A stretch of DNA of 64,000 nt from Candidatus Kaiserbacteria bacterium (GCA_029288835.1 JARIGN010000004.1:22313-86312), one strand, 5' to 3'; shown: positions 2,780 to 58,412, numbered from the stretch's first letter. Notes: generated by a model not told the origin, from the sequence alone. Numbers and translations are program-made.

Positions 2780-5419
2780 ATGCCAACAGGTGAAAAACTA
2801 CCAAAAATTACAGCTAATGAAAAAGGCGTAACTGTTTCCGGTCACAAAGAGGGTGTGACTGTAAATAATAATTACAAAACTGAGATTCATATCCACGGAT
2901 CAGCTCCTGAATCTCATCCGACCACAACTGTAACTGAGCCGCAAAGAATTGTTTTTTTCTCAACGCAGCGAAAAAGATTAGAAAAGATAGAAAAGCACCG
3001 CGCAAGAATGCAGGAAGCAGTTAAGGCGCTGCGAGAAAAAGAAGGAAAACAAGATAACAAAGAGTCTCCCAACGTCGAGTCCCCTAAAGCTGAAACTGCC
3101 GGCGCTGCAGCTACTCAGACTCCTAATGCAGCACCTAAAACAGAAAGTGCTCCAGAGAAGACCACTGAAAAGCTAAAGCCGCTTCGCGACAAAGGAATAG
3201 AAGAGGTAATGGAGAAGATGAAGGCTCGAAATGTGGCTGAAGCTTCTGCCTCAACGCCAAAGCCAGCAGCAGAGAAAAAACCGGATGCCTTTACTCCTGA
3301 TGAAAATAGGCTACTTAGGCTCGCCCTTGCTTCGAGAGGACCAGAAGCAATGAGGGAACTTCAAAAGCAGCTGCAATTGGATAAAGGGGAAAAGATTGAT
3401 GGAAAGTTAGGAAAAAGAACAAACCAAGAGCGCAGAGCGAAAGCAATGGAGCAGGCTGAAAAAATGCTTACTGCGGAAGGAGCATACTTTGTAGCACTCA
3501 AAGAATTTCACAGAACAAAAGGCTTCCATAGTGTCATTGGCGACAAATTTAACCCAGACGGTAGAATGCTTCCGCCAAATGTGCAGGCTTTAAAAGATGC
3601 ATGGATTGCTTCTCGCTCCTCATATGCGGAGTTTATGCGTAACAGTGCCGAAGATAGCCATCGAAAAAGGCATGAGAGGTATACCGGAAAGACTGCAGAG
3701 CTCCTCACCGACCGTGTAATGGAGCGGTACCAACGGCGCTTCATGGTTAAGGAAGTGGTCTTAGGTGCAGAAAAGGCAGAGCAAAGGGCACGTCTTGAGG
3801 GGCTTTCAACGCGTGACAAAAAAGGAATTGAAAAGTTTTTTGATAAGTACCAAAAGGGAATTAGTAAAGGCCTTCGGATATTTGGTACAGGTGCGATGAT
3901 AACGATGGGCATGGCTGCGGGAATTAGCGGATCTCCAATCGTTGGAATTGGAGCACTTCTATTCGGGGGCGCATCTGCTTTTAGTCTCTATAAAGCAGCA
4001 AAGGCAAAAGATGGTTCGGAAGAAAAGAAAAAATGGGAAAGAAGAGCACAGCTCACTAGCTTTGCAGGTATATTTGGCTGGGTTGGAGACAAGCTCATTC
4101 GCGGTGGTCATTCTTTAAACAAAACAGTTGATAAAGCTCATCAAACTCTTGAAAAGAGAGAGGGTCTCGGCGACCTTACCAGCGTGCAAAACATGAAGAA
4201 TATTGCCCATGAAAGGAAGCGAGCAACACAGGCAGAGGAAGTGGTTGAAGCAGATGCACGCATGGGAAGACTCGCAGGGTCGCTAATAGGAGGTGCGGCA
4301 GTAGGGGGTGCTCTGCATGGCCACCTTGGTCTTGGAGGAGGCTTTGAGCACCATAAGACAGTAAGTGAACTTTCTATTGGAGAGCACGCTGGGGGTCACA
4401 CCATTTATGACGGAGAAAGGCTTCTCGGACATTTTGCGAATAAGCTTCACAACCATCACTTCCCGGGAGGACATGTCCCAAAGTCAGTGCAAGCTTTTGA
4501 AAAGCTCCTTCACGTGAAAGGGCACAAAGGTTTTGCATGGAGCGCGGGGGAAAATAGAGCTTCAAAACTCCTGGGGTTTGAGGGTCCTAATGGAAGCGTT
4601 GTGATGCAGCCACACGACAGTCTAAAGCTCCTTGATAATGGAGACATTATTCTCCATAGGCCGGGACATCCGGAAATGGATACCCTTATTATGGATTCAC
4701 AAGGAAATCCTCACCAGATAGATACCTTTGTATGGCACCAGGCGCCCGTAGGGCATCATGCGCCTGGTTCTCCTACTCACGAAATGCATGAAGGCCATGA
4801 TATGAGTGCTGCCGCTTCAAATGACACCTCCCATGACCATGATGATGTTGCATTAAATAATGAGCAGCACCAAAAAGACCTTGCTGAAGACGCTGCGCGC
4901 CACTACACTCAGCCACCGACATCAACTCACATACCAGTACAGTCTACTGTTTCCCAACCAGAAAATGCGGCAAGCACCCAACAAGCATACGAAAACTTCA
5001 AACATAATTTCGCTGAACTAAAAGCCGAGCACCAAGCTGAGCGCGCTGCAGAGCATACTGCTCCACCGCATAGTGAAGTAATGTCTGCCGTTGCGGCACA
5101 TCAGCCTCCTCATGCACCTGACCTAGGCCCTATTGTGCAGCCACCACCGCATATTATTCAAGGGTCGGAGCATGCCGTAGCTACTGATAATGGGCATATT
5201 GAAGCAGAGTCTGCTGCTACTTTTCACGCGGAGCCTGGATCAGTGGCAGCATGGAATCAGGCGCGCGTGGCACCTGCAGGAACAGAAGTCCCGTATATAA
5301 GTCATGTTGATCCTAGTGGACCCCACTGGAATTCATGGGTTTCGGACGGAAAGGGACAAGTCCATGAAATATTGGGAGTTGACTCAGCTAATGGGAAACA
5401 CCTCCCTCCAGCAGCGTAG
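2780..5419 (+). CDS. Large hypothetical membrane protein (879 aa): Lys/Glu-rich N-terminal region, central TM helices, His-rich C-terminal region
   Basis: Long ORF. Hydrophobic stretch GLRIFGTGAMITMGMAAGISGSPIVGIGALLFGGASAFSLY. Repeated His clusters (HGHLGLGGGFEHH, HNHHFPGGH, HEMHEGHDM, SHDHDD). No recognisable catalytic motif. Lower GC than the core genes. Confidence 0.55.
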   Translation: MPTGEKLPKITANEKGVTVSGHKEGVTVNNNYKTEIHIHGSAPESHPTTTVTEPQRIVFFSTQRKRLEKIEKHRARMQEAVKALREKEGKQDNKESPNVESPKAETAGAAATQTPNAAPKTESAPEKTTEKLKPLRDKGIEEVMEKMKARNVAEASASTPKPAAEKKPDAFTPDENRLLRLALASRGPEAMRELQKQLQLDKGEKIDGKLGKRTNQERRAKAMEQAEKMLTAEGAYFVALKEFHRTKGFHSVIGDKFNPDGRMLPPNVQALKDAWIASRSSYAEFMRNSAEDSHRKRHERYTGKTAELLTDRVMERYQRRFMVKEVVLGAEKAEQRARLEGLSTRDKKGIEKFFDKYQKGISKGLRIFGTGAMITMGMAAGISGSPIVGIGALLFGGASAFSLYKAAKAKDGSEEKKKWERRAQLTSFAGIFGWVGDKLIRGGHSLNKTVDKAHQTLEKREGLGDLTSVQNMKNIAHERKRATQAEEVVEADARMGRLAGSLIGGAAVGGALHGHLGLGGGFEHHKTVSELSIGEHAGGHTIYDGERLLGHFANKLHNHHFPGGHVPKSVQAFEKLLHVKGHKGFAWSAGENRASKLLGFEGPNGSVVMQPHDSLKLLDNGDIILHRPGHPEMDTLIMDSQGNPHQIDTFVWHQAPVGHHAPGSPTHEMHEGHDMSAAASNDTSHDHDDVALNNEQHQKDLAEDAARHYTQPPTSTHIPVQSTVSQPENAASTQQAYENFKHNFAELKAEHQAERAAEHTAPPHSEVMSAVAAHQPPHAPDLGPIVQPPPHIIQGSEHAVATDNGHIEAESAATFHAEPGSVAAWNQARVAPAGTEVPYISHVDPSGPHWNSWVSDGKGQVHEILGVDSANGKHLPPAA

Positions 5420-54705: not shown

Positions 54706-55965
54706 ATGGAAACAGCCGGAAACCTCCAAAAAGACTTGCTTGCACGCGGCCTTATCGAGCACCACTCCGCCGAGCTAGAGACTATCTTTGCGCAAAAGCG
54801 CACGGTGTACCTCGGGGTGGATCCCTCTGCAGACTCGATGCAGGCAGGGAATTTGGTCGTGATTCTTTTAATGAAGCGTCTTGCAGACGCAGGGCATAAG
54901 GTGATCTTCCTCGTGGGTGGAGGCACCGGCATGATCGGAGACCCGCGCGAAAGCGGCGAGCGCACCCTTGCGGATGCGAAGGTAATCGAGAAAAACAAGA
55001 AAGCCCTTAAGGCACAGTTCCAGCAGATCCTCGGCACGCGCATTCAGCTTGTGGACAACGCAGACTGGCTTTTGAAGGCGAAGCTTGTCGATTTTTTGCG
55101 TGACATTGGAAAGCACTTTACGGTGAACGAGCTCGTGAAGCGCGATATCATCCGCCGCAGGCTTGAAACCCCTGACGAAAGCATTTCATACACCGAGTTT
55201 GCCTACTCACTTTTGCAAGGCTTTGATTTTCTTGTGCTGAACCAAAAGTATGGCTGCAATATGCAAGTGGGTGCGAGTGACCAATGGACAAACATTCTTT
55301 CAGGCGTCGAGCTTATCCGCCGCAAGCTTGGCAAGGAAGCGTTTGCGCTCACCTGCCCGCTCGTAACGGACGCAAATGGCAAGAAGTTTGGCAAGTCAGA
55401 AGGGAATGCAGTGTGGCTGAGCGCACAGAAGACTTCGCCCTATGCCTTCTATCAGTTTTGGCTTAACCAGCCAGATGAGAAAGTGGAGCAGTACCTGAAG
55501 TTTTACACCTTTATGAGTGTGCGCGAGATAGAAGCGCTCGTGGAGCTGCATCGCCGTAACCCAGGCCGACGTGAAGCACAAAAGATGCTTGCGCTGCACG
55601 TAACGGAAATCGTGCATGGAAAGCAGGCTGCGGAAAACGCGCAAGCAGTTTCGGAAGTGCTCTTTGGTGGAAAGCCGCTTGCGGAACTCACCACAAAAGA
55701 GCTTATGCTTTTGGATCAAAACTCCACAACCCATGGAATTAAAAGCTCTGAAATAGAAGCCGGGTATCTTGTCTCAGACGCCCTCGTTGCAAGCGGCCTT
55801 GCCAACTCCAAATCTGATGCCCGAAGGCTTATAGAAGGGAAGGGAGTGTATCTAAATGACGAAAGGGTGGAGTCAGTTTCAGATCAGCTAACTCCATCAT
55901 CCTTTATTCAGAACCATGCAAAGCTAGCGAAAGGGTCACAAATAGTAATTCTTTTCATGAAATAA
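54706..55965 (+). CDS. tyrS: Tyrosine--tRNA ligase
   Basis: YLGVDPSADSMQAGN HIGH-like region. KFGKS (KMSKS). C-terminal S4 domain. Confidence 0.95.
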   Translation: METAGNLQKDLLARGLIEHHSAELETIFAQKRTVYLGVDPSADSMQAGNLVVILLMKRLADAGHKVIFLVGGGTGMIGDPRESGERTLADAKVIEKNKKALKAQFQQILGTRIQLVDNADWLLKAKLVDFLRDIGKHFTVNELVKRDIIRRRLETPDESISYTEFAYSLLQGFDFLVLNQKYGCNMQVGASDQWTNILSGVELIRRKLGKEAFALTCPLVTDANGKKFGKSEGNAVWLSAQKTSPYAFYQFWLNQPDEKVEQYLKFYTFMSVREIEALVELHRRNPGRREAQKMLALHVTEIVHGKQAAENAQAVSEVLFGGKPLAELTTKELMLLDQNSTTHGIKSSEIEAGYLVSDALVASGLANSKSDARRLIEGKGVYLNDERVESVSDQLTPSSFIQNHAKLAKGSQIVILFMK

Positions 55966-56006
55966 GCAGAAGTGAGGCGCAAAGCTATTTGTGATAAGGT
56001 TACTAG

Positions 56007-56651
56007 ATGGCGTCAATACCTGATACACAACATTCGTATGCTATACAAATGTATGAGTCAGGTAACAGTGCTCAAGAAGTGGCAAATTACTATACCGTAA
56101 GCGTGGGAGCTGTCTTTTATATATTGAAGAAATATAAAATACCAAGGAGAAGTACGAGGGATTCGAATGCTATCAAGTATGATCGGGCAGCACCTTCGTT
56201 TATTCTCAAAGAAAACCTTACTCAGGATCAAAAAGAGTTAAAAACTATTGGAGTGATGCTGTATTGGGCTGAAGGGTATAAGATTGGAAAAAATACTATA
56301 GATTTCGCTAACTCAGACCCGTCAATGGTCGTTTTGTTCTGTAAATTTTTACGTCAGATATGTGGAATTACTGAATCTAAAATTCGTTGTTCTTTGTACT
56401 GTTATGACACCCAAGATTTAGCAGTACTTCATTCTTATTGGAGTTCGCTTCTTAGTGTTCCTCTAGCGCAGTTTACAAAACCCTTTATTAAAAAGGCTGA
56501 TGAAGACAGCAAAAGAGGGCCAAGAATGGTGCATGGCCTTGTGCATGTTCGATATTGTGATAAAAAGTTATTACGGCAGGTACTTAATTGGATTGCTGAA
56601 TATCAAATCGAAAGCGTCGGTGGCGGAGTGGTCAATCGCATTGGACTGTAA
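56007..56651 (+). CDS. HTH + LAGLIDADG-like (homing-endonuclease-like) protein; 3' end overlaps tRNA-Tyr by 38 nt
   Basis: N-terminal HTH (YAIQMYESGNSAQEVANYYTVSVGAVFYILKKYKIP). LYWAEGYKIGKNTIDFANSDPSMVVLFCKFL resembles the LAGLIDADG-type motif block. AT-rich gene. Confidence 0.45.
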   Translation: MASIPDTQHSYAIQMYESGNSAQEVANYYTVSVGAVFYILKKYKIPRRSTRDSNAIKYDRAAPSFILKENLTQDQKELKTIGVMLYWAEGYKIGKNTIDFANSDPSMVVLFCKFLRQICGITESKIRCSLYCYDTQDLAVLHSYWSSLLSVPLAQFTKPFIKKADEDSKRGPRMVHGLVHVRYCDKKLLRQVLNWIAEYQIESVGGGVVNRIGL

Positions 56652-56700
56652 ATCCAACGACTTAATGTCTACGAAGGTTCGAATCCTTCCCGGCGCACCA
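56614..56700 (+). tRNA. tRNA-Tyr (anticodon GTA), long variable arm, CCA encoded
   Basis: Hand fold: acceptor GCGTCGG/CCGGCGC with two G-U pairs; D-arm GCG-GAGTGGTCAAT-CGC; anticodon stem TTGGA/TCCAA with loop CTGTAAA; variable arm CGACTTAATGTCTAC; T-arm GAAGGTTCGAATCCTTC; terminal ACCA. Confidence 0.75.
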
Positions 56701-56705
56701 AAAAG

Positions 56706-56727
56706 AAAACGGCCTTCTGGCCGTTTT
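56706..56727. terminator. Terminator hairpin aaaacggcc ttct ggccgtttt after tRNA-Tyr (bidirectional)
   Basis: Perfect 9-bp stem with A-run/T-run flanks. Confidence 0.6.
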
Positions 56728-56732
56728 AGTAG

Positions 56733-57335
56733 TTATGGATGCCTCGTTGAATAGTATATTTCGGGAACACCATAGGTTCTCATCAGCCACCCGAAAGTAA
56801 AGTGCTGTGATACCTTCGTTGACTTGTTTACACTGATCACTACAGTGTGTTCCGTTAGCACGCGTGGCTTCTTAGGATCCGAAAACTCGCGGATTAGATC
56901 GCGCCCTTCAGTCCTGCAGTAGCCACAGCACTTAAGGGTCTGGTTATACTCATGGTCAGGATCACTTTTCAACCACTCCGGCGCGTAATCGTCGATCTGC
57001 TTATCTGCATAGACGACGATCATGAGCAGCTCATACCCGTACTTTCTACACTCAGTAAAGTGATAGTTTTCACCACAGCGCCGAGGCCCCTCTTCTCCCG
57101 GAAAGGGCTTGAGGTTAGCCTGGTACAGGATTTTATACGCCCACTCGCAGGTATGAATTTCCTTGTAACGAACGAGCGCAGCAACACCAACGTGAAAGTG
57201 ACGATGACTTACGCCATATTCCCAAGCGTGCTCAGCGTATTCAAGTAAAATGAGCTTGATCTGCTCAAACGATTTAATTTTGATGAACACCCCTTCCGGG
57301 GTCTCAACCATTCGCTCCTTTCCAGGAGGACGCAT
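56733..57335 (-). CDS. Cys/His-rich hypothetical protein (200 aa), possible zinc-binding nuclease-like
   Basis: AAGGAG RBS before the ATG. Motifs HTCEW, CGENYHFTEC and CCGYC. No family recognised. Confidence 0.45.
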   Translation of the reverse strand: MRPPGKERMVETPEGVFIKIKSFEQIKLILLEYAEHAWEYGVSHRHFHVGVAALVRYKEIHTCEWAYKILYQANLKPFPGEEGPRRCGENYHFTECRKYGYELLMIVVYADKQIDDYAPEWLKSDPDHEYNQTLKCCGYCRTEGRDLIREFSDPKKPRVLTEHTVVISVNKSTKVSQHFTFGWLMRTYGVPEIYYSTRHP

Positions 57336-57428
57336 GGCAAACTCCTTTCAGTTGCGGATAAATACTATACAATAAGCGTAATTTATATCAAGACGCTTGC
57401 TCTAATAACGGTATGCTATCGTATTTAC

Positions 57429-58412
57429 ATGTCTAGCCCATCCACAAAACCAGTGATGCTTTCGGGCATTAAGCCGACCGGTGAAATTCATCTCGGGAAT
57501 TATTTTGGGGCGATGCGTCAACTCGTCGAGCTCGCGAAGTCAGGGAAGTACCAGTCATTCATCATGGTGGCTGACTATCACGCGCTCAATTTCATCCAGA
57601 ATGCAAAAGAAATGCGCGAGCTGTCCCTCGACCTAGCCGCTGCATATATGGCGGTGGGTCTCACGCCGCAAAGCGGAAGCGGGGAAGACCGCGTCGTACT
57701 TTTCAAACAGTCAGACGTGCCTGCGCACACCGAGCTCACCTGGATCTTCGATACCCTCACCACCATGCCCTACCTCATGCGCGCACATGCCTTTAAGGAC
57801 GCTGAGGCAAAGAACCATGAGATAAGCGTGGGGACCTTTAACTACCCAATGCTCATGTCAGCAGACATTCTTTTGTATGACACCCAGCTCGTGCCGGTGG
57901 GGCAGGACCAGAAGCAGCATATAGAATATGCTCGTGATACTGCGGAAAAGTTTAACCGTGTCTTTGGCCAGGAAGTATTTACGCTTCCAAAAGAGCACAT
58001 CATGGAAGAGGTTGCTATCGTACCAGGCATCGATGGCCAGAAAATGAGCAAAAGCTATGGCAACACGATTCCGCTTTTTGCTTCACGCGAAGTCATTACC
58101 GAGCGCGTCATGAGTATAGTGACTGATTCCTCAGGAGAGCGCCCTGAAAATGTGTATGCAATTCACAAGCTTATTAAATCGGAAGCCGAGCTTGCGCCAA
58201 TCTATGAGGAGCACCGAGGAAAGTATAAAGCGCTCAAAGAGGCGCTTGTTGAAGATCTCGATGCGTTCATCGCGCCGCTTCGCACTACATACATCGAGCT
58301 TAAGGATAGTCCTGAAAAGATAACGGCAGCACTCGAGCGCGGTGCAGAGCAGGCGAGGGAAGTGACCAGTAAGAAGATGGCGGAGGTTAAAAAAGCCATT
58401 GGAGTAGCATAA
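57429..58412 (+). CDS. trpS: Tryptophan--tRNA ligase
   Basis: SGIKPTGEIHLGNYFGA (HIGH). KMSKS present. Confidence 0.95.
   Translation: MSSPSTKPVMLSGIKPTGEIHLGNYFGAMRQLVELAKSGKYQSFIMVADYHALNFIQNAKEMRELSLDLAAAYMAVGLTPQSGSGEDRVVLFKQSDVPAHTELTWIFDTLTTMPYLMRAHAFKDAEAKNHEISVGTFNYPMLMSADILLYDTQLVPVGQDQKQHIEYARDTAEKFNRVFGQEVFTLPKEHIMEEVAIVPGIDGQKMSKSYGNTIPLFASREVITERVMSIVTDSSGERPENVYAIHKLIKSEAELAPIYEEHRGKYKALKEALVEDLDAFIAPLRTTYIELKDSPEKITAALERGAEQAREVTSKKMAEVKKAIGVA

Follow-up and report, generated by a model that had tools for sequence, protein, structure and literature searches.

A free-standing gene of the homing-endonuclease type lying near tRNA genes is already known from phage T4. SegB is a free-standing GIY-YIG homing endonuclease encoded in the T4 tRNA gene cluster; its activity has been demonstrated, it recognises a site based on a conserved tRNA motif, and the gene, which is absent from T2L, RB1 and RB3, is inherited together with the flanking tRNA genes (PMC2330249). 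The product of T4 mobE, also a free-standing endonuclease, mobilises the neighbouring td/nrdB intron in trans (PMC2790892). The subject of this work is an open reading frame (ORF) between tyrS and the tRNA-Tyr gene in a stretch of 64,000 nt, referred to as the window, from Candidatus Kaiserbacteria bacterium (GCA_029288835.1 JARIGN010000004.1:22313-86312); the putative product carries an N-terminal helix-turn-helix (HTH) and a LAGLIDADG-like domain. A further example of collaborative homing is reportedly provided by cyanophage F-CphI with the psbA intron. Another relevant protein, the domesticated LAGLIDADG transcription factor WhiA, is described as having two degenerate LAGLIDADG domains without the catalytic acids and a C-terminal HTH, and as near-universal within its lineages.

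We give an even chance to the reading that the ORF is a free-standing selfish gene of the homing-endonuclease type which lies in a pre-tRNA leader and would encode a putative nuclease of an unannotated family of the candidate phyla radiation (CPR)/Patescibacteria. A mobile endonuclease gene inserted beside the tRNA was among the possibilities raised in the original prediction, made from the sequence of the window, and it is the best supported of them, as the site was empty in 7/7 relatives that interleave with occupied genomes; a recent insertion is not what was found, however, since the family is old, widespread and strongly conserved. The features of the locus are as follows.

54706-55965, plus strand: tyrS (Pfam tRNA-synt_1b, E = 8e-72).
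55966-56006, plus strand: spacer of 41 nt from the tyrS stop to the ORF start, counterpart of the 27-82 nt spacer in empty-site relatives.
56007-56651, plus strand: full ORF for the HTH-LAGLIDADG-like protein, 214 amino acids plus stop (ATG 56007, TAA 56649-56651).
56007-56186, plus strand: N-terminal HTH domain, about residues 1-60, four helices, of resolvase / Tc3 / sigma-4 / YlxM type.
56223-56618, plus strand: LAGLIDADG-fold domain, about residues 73-204.
56262-56282, plus strand: codons of the motif Y86-W87-A88-E89-G90-x-K92, at the end of the motif helix.
56614-56700, plus strand: tRNA-Tyr(GTA), class II, with a long variable arm and encoded CCA (ARAGORN; Rfam RF00005).
56614-56651, plus strand: ORF/tRNA overlap of 38 nt, the 5' half of the tRNA being translated as (S)VGGGVVNRIGL followed by the stop.

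The tRNA-Tyr gene starts 648 nt past the tyrS stop, in agreement with the distance of about 650 nt originally given, and the AT-rich character ascribed to the ORF was borne out by a G+C content of 34-40 % against approximately 50-57 % in tyrS and trpS. The computed overlap, 56614-56651, likewise agrees with the 38 nt by which the ORF had been said to run into the tRNA. Its stop codon had been placed in the acceptor/D-arm; TAA 56649-56651 corresponds to U35-A36-A37, the last two anticodon bases and A37, and therefore lies in the anticodon loop. The possibility that the tRNA had been miscalled was dismissed: besides the ARAGORN call, the covariance model RF00005 matched over its full length (model positions 1-71) with 62.8 bits against a gathering score of 29 (E = 4e-13), and the tRNA-Tyr is conserved in about 70 related loci. 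The NCBI gene call for the ORF is shorter (200 amino acids), with the start inferred at M15 (56049), but residues 1-14 are conserved across the homologs, which supports ATG 56007 over 56049.

The position of the gene at the 5' end of a tRNA proved to be a fixed property of a large family. A homolog search returned 294 proteins at E ≤ 1e-3, of 200-218 amino acids, about 50-58 % identical and sharing 36 invariant columns; they come from Parcubacteria, Kaiserbacteria and Paceibacterota and, where named, are called "hypothetical". An exhaustive profile search gave 118 clusters (50 % identity) below E = 1e-30 and 1,990 below 1e-10, and a scan of one genome per GTDB species found carriers in at least 279 species, which comprise many CPR lineages and a few metagenome-assembled genomes labelled Omnitrophota. 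Eighty fetched loci (designated L) and the window, together holding 84 family copies, form the genome set. In this set a tRNA lay on the same strand at 82 of the 84 copies, the two tRNA-less copies being situated at the edges of incomplete loci, and in 79/84 the tRNA 5' end was found 0-40 nt past the last conserved codon (median 13 nt). The background frequency of a same-strand tRNA at that distance was 25/806 other ORFs (3 %; Fisher p = 6e-84). In the window gene the conserved core ends about 10-20 nt ahead of the tRNA +1.

The ORF does not bring its own stop codon and continues into the tRNA up to the UAA of U35-A36-A37. Most homologs share the end peptide CVGGGVVNRxxL followed by the stop, which the alignment identifies as the translated 5' half of tRNA-Tyr, and some 30 copies have the stop exactly at U35-A36-A37 with the same tail as the window ORF. 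In other copies the stop comes 2-18 nt ahead of the tRNA or, within it, at +4 to +29. The extent of the overlap is therefore variable, and the overlap would seem to be a side effect of the extreme closeness of gene and tRNA. The tRNA-encoded tail was modelled by AlphaFold2 at a predicted local distance difference test (pLDDT) of 49-63 and is lacking in many homologs that stop earlier, so it is probably non-functional. The family ORF of L017 has no stop inside the tRNA and reads on for about 690 nt. This locus also has 984 nt of extra DNA between tyrS and the family gene (about 3000-4000), and L006 has 632 nt at the same place (about 3365-4000).

To look at the site in the absence of the gene, relatives were picked via tyrS and without reference to the family gene, which left 7 informative contigs with tyrS 68-73 % identical to that of the window. 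All seven had an empty site, with tRNA-Tyr 27-82 nt after the tyrS stop, so that the ORF is not conserved everywhere downstream of tyrS; no remnant of the family was detectable in these contigs by tblastn. What the gene occupies is thus, in these genomes, the leader of pre-tRNA-Tyr. In a neighbour-joining tree of tyrS the occupied and empty genomes interleave: L086 (empty) stands beside L014 and L004, L084 next to L002, and one clade made up solely of empty genomes falls within occupied lineages. The empty sites and this interleaving therefore define the window gene as an insertion of about 600 bp relative to an ancestral tyrS-tRNA-Tyr junction, and at least three events of gain or loss must be assumed for this clade by itself. 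A target-site duplication, put forward earlier as a possible mark of insertion, could not be seen at the junction in the window, nor would insertion through repair be expected to leave one.

The protein itself has two parts. The N-terminal HTH, already suspected, is matched by HTH_7, HTH_23, YlxM, Cbp1 and a PHROG "DNA binding protein", and corresponds to four helices in the AlphaFold2 model. These are followed by a linker and an alpha/beta domain; the pLDDT was 88.9 for the full-length protein and 90.3 for residues 62-204 alone, with a predicted template modelling score (pTM) of 0.85. The HTH was the only part detected in Pfam, NCBIfam, PHROGs, PADLOC and the PDB (phmmer and hmmsearch), the C-terminal domain having no curated family match there. 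The Pfam models LAGLIDADG_1/2/3 and Hom_end gave no match at E ≤ 1 with the window protein nor at E ≤ 0.01 with 10 diverse relatives, and the Pfam WhiA model did not match the window protein. Hence the LAGLIDADG-type block of the original prediction stands as regards the core fold and the motif acid, but not as regards a Pfam LAGLIDADG profile match. The alpha-beta-beta-alpha-beta-beta-alpha core fold of LAGLIDADG homing endonucleases is present in the ORF protein: Y86-W-A-E89-G90 lies at the C-terminus of helix 73-88, right before the first beta strand, and downstream of the motif helix come a beta-hairpin, an N102-S103-D104 helix cap and the strand G177-L-V-H180-x-x-Y183-x-D185. By motif and modelled fold, E89 would take the place of the LAGLIDADG catalytic acid and may have a catalytic role. 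Residues Y86, E89, G90, N102, W145, F156 and G177 are invariant in 84/84 copies, including those of the Trp, Glu and Thr subfamilies, and K92, S103 and D185 are nearly so.

The family also exists in other architectures. Fused double-domain relatives form three independent clusters (protein clusters P0294, P0370 and P0384); in the two that were checked, P0370 and P0384, both from high-GC organisms, the YWCEG.K and NSDP-like motifs are kept in both domains. There are HTH-less single-domain forms of about 120 amino acids, and two N-terminal HTH units were seen among the variants P0244, P0252-P0254 and P0280. The fused relatives suggest that the functional unit consists of two domains, and the single-domain window protein would then probably act as a dimer. 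By analogy, the coexistence of single-domain and fused double-domain forms mirrors the homodimer/monomer dichotomy characteristic of LAGLIDADG enzymes.

The tRNA partner of the gene is not always tRNA-Tyr. In the genome set the partners were tRNA-Tyr (65 copies), intron-split tRNA-Tyr (5), tRNA-Thr(GGT) (6), tRNA-Glu(CTC) (2) and tRNA-Trp (2), the two copies at tRNA-Trp being the second paralogs of L042 and L045. Divergent paralogs were used to seed a metagenome scan, which added 84 further copies. Among these 54 adjoin a tRNA, with a median stop-to-tRNA gap of -1.5 nt, and 7 more adjoin an intron-split tRNA-Phe, which brings the total at a tRNA 5' end to 61/77 informative copies. The partners were here tRNA-Trp (27), tRNA-Val(TAC) (9) and tRNA-Glu(CTC) (4), and tRNAs for Lys, Phe, Gly, Gln, Arg, Ala, Asp and Thr also occurred; at least 13 tRNA partners are recorded in all. 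Partner identity was strongly clustered on a protein tree of 161 copies, 69 Tyr members falling in a clade of 78, 26 Trp members in a clade of 29 and 9 Val members in a clade of 12. The Tyr clade also contains, nested within it, the Thr(GGT) copies, whose tRNA is the gene that comes next in the thrU-tyrU-glyT-thrT operon.

Some of the partner tRNAs are interrupted by group I introns. ARAGORN called no tRNA-Tyr in L039, L040, L054, L055 and L058. In the last four of these Rfam placed a group I intron exactly at the missing tRNA-Tyr (80-102 bits), and reading of the sequences (by eye for L039) showed the tRNA-Tyr of all five to be split between U35 and A36. A sixth, apparent case, also read by eye, is L169, where an intron-split tRNA-Tyr adjoins an HTH-less copy (1501-1863); a tRNA-Thr(TGT) lies just 150 nt upstream. 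In the metagenome set 7 copies adjoin a tRNA-Phe(GAA) split at 33/34 by a group I intron (62-90 bits), and 5 further copies have an intron-bearing tRNA just upstream of the gene. Even in the intron-bearing loci the family gene lies outside the intron, and the introns in the partner tRNAs are ORF-less.

Introns at the tRNA-Tyr 35/36 and tRNA-Phe 33/34 positions were described in Patescibacteria by Nakagawa et al. 2026 (PMC13011429), each in about 1/95 complete genomes; one genome there, GCA_016699995.1, has both. Against this frequency the enrichment beside the family gene is strong for Phe (7/9, p = 1e-8) and marginal for Tyr (5/70, p = 0.08; 6/71 if L169 is counted, p = 0.04). In the same study endonuclease genes were sought solely inside introns > 500 bp and with Pfam, most tRNA introns were without such genes, and horizontal spread of the introns was concluded to be limited (PMC13011429). 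Such a Pfam search would have missed the flanking family, which is not mentioned there.

Two intron loci have additional peculiarities. In L144 (about 2203-2395) a 23-nt direct repeat, AAAATAAAATATGCCGCGGTAGC, composed of leader and tRNA-Phe 5' end, flanks an insert of about 170 nt situated between the family gene and the intron-split tRNA-Phe; this arrangement resembles the trace of another insertion or recombination event at the 5' boundary of the tRNA. In L157 (617-1210) the group I intron match, just upstream of the family gene, is 594 nt long against the usual 230-250 nt, and an ORF or an insertion may lie within this long intron; the locus L158 is related.

A mechanism can be proposed from these data. 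The gene would be transcribed within the pre-tRNA-Tyr leader; no terminator was seen between the ORF and tRNA-Tyr. With such co-transcription RNase P processing would part the message from the tRNA, and the cleavage would strip the stop codon from the message, so the message would have to be translated before it is processed, and expression would stay low as a result. The 10-residue tRNA-encoded tail would be a functionless by-product. The protein dimer would cut the unoccupied junction or the tRNA gene in genomes without the gene; targeting of the tRNA, as the original prediction had it, is what we infer here for the putative endonuclease. Repair from an occupied copy, with the conserved tRNA and tyrS (or an upstream tRNA) as homology arms, would then copy the gene in, and neighbouring markers, including the ORF-less group I introns of the partner tRNA, could be co-converted, a parallel to T4 mobE (PMC2790892). 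The fuller proposition, that the Pfam-invisible proteins in tRNA leaders are an active, tRNA-specific and leader-expressed LAGLIDADG-type endonuclease family serving through co-conversion as the mobility engine of the ORF-less introns, is advanced tentatively and we regard it as rather doubtful.

Several observations weigh against a selfish homing gene. Gene distances are correlated with tyrS distances (Mantel r = 0.40, p = 0.0015); divergence is about equally slow in the two, with a mean distance of 0.38 for the gene and 0.36 for tyrS, and the G+C content of the gene tracks that of the host (r = 0.89). Few copies are degraded: L078 is the one in the genome set of 84, and HTH-less forms like that of L169 come in addition. 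A scan of viral contigs brought up no relatives. Slow evolution, co-divergence with the host and rarity of degraded copies fit long vertical residence or a host function. In the protein, a hand alignment to I-CreI puts the bulky residues M84, Y86 and W87 at dimer-interface positions that are usually small, and as to the introns, 65/70 Tyr-type copies adjoin an intron-less tRNA. Finally, empty and occupied genomes cannot be told apart by their tRNA-Tyr sequences. That differences in the tRNA confer immunity was considered and rejected: the tRNA of the empty L086 equals that of the occupied L013 through the 5' half, and L014 has the D-arm in common with the empty clade. Self-immunity is therefore unexplained unless the target spans the insertion junction, which, as empty and occupied tRNAs are indistinguishable, it probably does.

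The evidence on vertical versus horizontal descent is mixed. Host clades with 99-100 % bootstrap in tyrS were recovered in 0-3 % of gene-tree replicates; the gene tree is too poorly resolved to establish horizontal transfer and has no strong alternative clade except L014+L004 (94 %). The correlation of tRNA distance with gene distance was not significant (r = 0.18, p = 0.08), and the G+C content of the gene was below that of its flanks in 78/81 loci (median -6.7 points). The sequence data fit long residence under strong purifying selection, and occasional horizontal replacement is possible.

The slow evolution and the rarity of pseudogenes are also what would be seen if the protein were a domesticated LAGLIDADG-derived DNA-binding factor, a WhiA-like regulator of tRNA-gene transcription or processing that is inherited vertically and repeatedly lost. 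This explanation, also among the possibilities of the original prediction, is a serious alternative but in our view an unlikely one. The gene is dispensable and patchy, being absent in 7/7 sampled close relatives, and reduced genomes would hardly keep a separate regulator for each of at least 13 tRNAs in a minority of species. Domestication of the WhiA type involved loss of the catalytic acids, whereas E89 is invariant and both acids persist in P0370 and P0384, the double-domain proteins that were checked. Nor would domestication account for the enrichment of group I introns among the partner tRNAs.

That enrichment has a more direct place in another proposal, an RNA-binding maturase or chaperone that helps to fold or splice the adjacent pre-tRNA, originally its group I intron, in the manner of certain LAGLIDADG maturases encoded in introns. 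The gene is co-located and probably co-transcribed with the putative RNA substrate, and its association with intron-containing tRNA-Phe (7/9) is strong and extends to some tRNA-Tyr (5-6 of about 70). However, intron-less partners are found for the 65/70 Tyr-type copies mentioned above, the window's included, and for all Trp- and Val-type copies, and Rfam gave no match to the group I intron RF00028 in the window at 55900-56800. The HTH and the conserved acidic residue point to a DNA substrate. Moreover, the related tRNA-Asn and tRNA-Asp introns of Patescibacteria self-splice in vitro without protein (PMC13011429). A maturase is disfavoured because most partner tRNAs are intron-less and related introns do without a protein, and we hold it to be quite improbable.

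An artefact, that is a spurious ORF or a wrong tRNA call that would make the overlap meaningless, has nothing in its favour except that it is odd for a coding sequence to end within a tRNA, and is refuted to the point of negligible probability by the 294 homologs at E ≤ 1e-3 with 36 invariant columns, the confident AlphaFold2 model (pLDDT 89-90) and the tRNA score of 62.8 bits with conservation in relatives.

Insertion of the gene between tyrS and tRNA-Tyr raises the matter of how the tRNA is transcribed. The spacer of 5/7 empty-site relatives contains a near-consensus sigma-70 promoter (TTGAAA, 17 nt, TATAGT or TATATT), and in 5/7 the tRNA promoter overlaps the tyrS 3' end. Of the empty-site spacers 71 % had a strong sigma-70-like match, compared with 6 % of random windows; the figures for the regions upstream of the ORF and for the ORF 3' ends were 46 % and 23 %, respectively. 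In the window analysed here there was no good match upstream of the ORF or at its 3' end. The matches inside the ORF stem from the conserved YCD/RQIL codons. An element TTGTGA, 18 nt, (G/T)ATACT recurs inside the ORF 29-40 nt upstream of the tRNA in L002, L007, L012, L014 and L015, and its counterpart in the window (about 56553-56590) has a weaker second hexamer, GGTACT. This element could be an internal tRNA promoter or a mere consequence of protein conservation.

The surroundings of the tRNA on its downstream side comprise two features.

56706-56727, no strand assigned: G+C-rich hairpin with A/T runs on both sides, bidirectional terminator-like, directly after the tRNA.
56733-57335, minus strand: convergent Cys-rich ORF of 200 amino acids.

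The hairpin separates tRNA-Tyr from the Cys-rich ORF. This convergent gene, which had been taken to add to the accessory character of the site, is indeed present beyond the shared hairpin terminator but is unrelated to the family: a homolog was found in 0/88 other related loci (search of L001-L080 and gene tables of L081-L088), and no significant match was obtained in Pfam, NCBIfam, PHROGs, PADLOC or PDB sequences. It was therefore not regarded as part of the system. The nearest relatives of the source genome are Kaiserbacteria-like Parcubacteria, and the Parcubacteria clade concerned (window 54706-58412; L001-L019, L082-L088) has a conserved synthetase cluster of tyrS, tRNA-Tyr, a few variable small ORFs, trpS and an aspS/asnS-like gene; the cognate tyrS/tRNA-Tyr adjacency is ancestral in this clade. 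The interval from tRNA-Tyr to trpS holds other small genes in the relatives, such as GreA in L085 and hypothetical proteins of 91-179 amino acids. Because these genes differ, the interval is a variable hotspot.

No paper describing the family was found in the literature. Apparently undescribed so far are the protein family, the strict placement of its genes at tRNA 5' ends in the genomes of CPR cells, the tRNA-specific subfamilies, the stop codons within the tRNA and the association with ORF-less tRNA introns. The architecture is unusual in that a coding gene lies in a pre-tRNA leader and has its stop made from the anticodon loop of the tRNA, which may bring translation into competition with RNase P processing. 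For annotation, it accounts for a recurrent apparent overlap of coding sequence and tRNA in CPR genomes. If a homing function is true, the family would offer a direct route of mobility (trans or collaborative homing) for the ORF-less tRNA introns of Patescibacteria, would show that free-standing homing elements occur in cellular tRNA operons as well as in phages, and would add a divergent branch to the LAGLIDADG superfamily. Since each subfamily appears to have its own tRNA-gene specificity, it would also be of relevance to meganuclease engineering.

The family can be set against the known LAGLIDADG enzymes, of which I-CreI, I-CeuI, I-MsoI and I-Vdi141I have a single motif and I-DmoI a double one. 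Enzymes of this kind cut both strands at a specific target of about 18-22 bp and leave 3' overhangs of 4 nt. Compared with I-CreI and its like the window protein is without detectable profile similarity, has an extra N-terminal HTH and carries bulky residues in the motif helix; its gene is encoded outside an intron, in a tRNA leader, and dimerisation and cleavage are putative. Unlike intron-encoded LAGLIDADG maturases, it does not lie within a group I intron. It differs from WhiA in its single domain, the N-terminal place of its HTH, the invariance of the acid and the patchiness of its distribution. The introns beside the family genes, at 35/36 in tRNA-Tyr and 33/34 in tRNA-Phe, are of kinds listed by Nakagawa et al. 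2026 (PMC13011429). As in collaborative homing, where the intron is mobilised by co-conversion and may protect the carrier's own copy, a free-standing endonuclease-type gene stands beside a gene with an ORF-less or defunct group I intron. The mobE-type cases concern phage protein-coding genes and HNH or other nucleases, whereas the genes here are cellular tRNA genes and the partners (Tyr, Trp, Val) are mostly intron-less. There is also a likeness to SegB: both genes are free-standing, outside introns, among tRNA genes and absent from close relatives. SegB is of the GIY-YIG type and phage-borne, while the window family is LAGLIDADG-like and resides in cellular chromosomes, with an activity that we infer; and where SegB has neither a fixed abutment or overlap with a tRNA 5' end nor subfamilies devoted to one tRNA, the window family has both.

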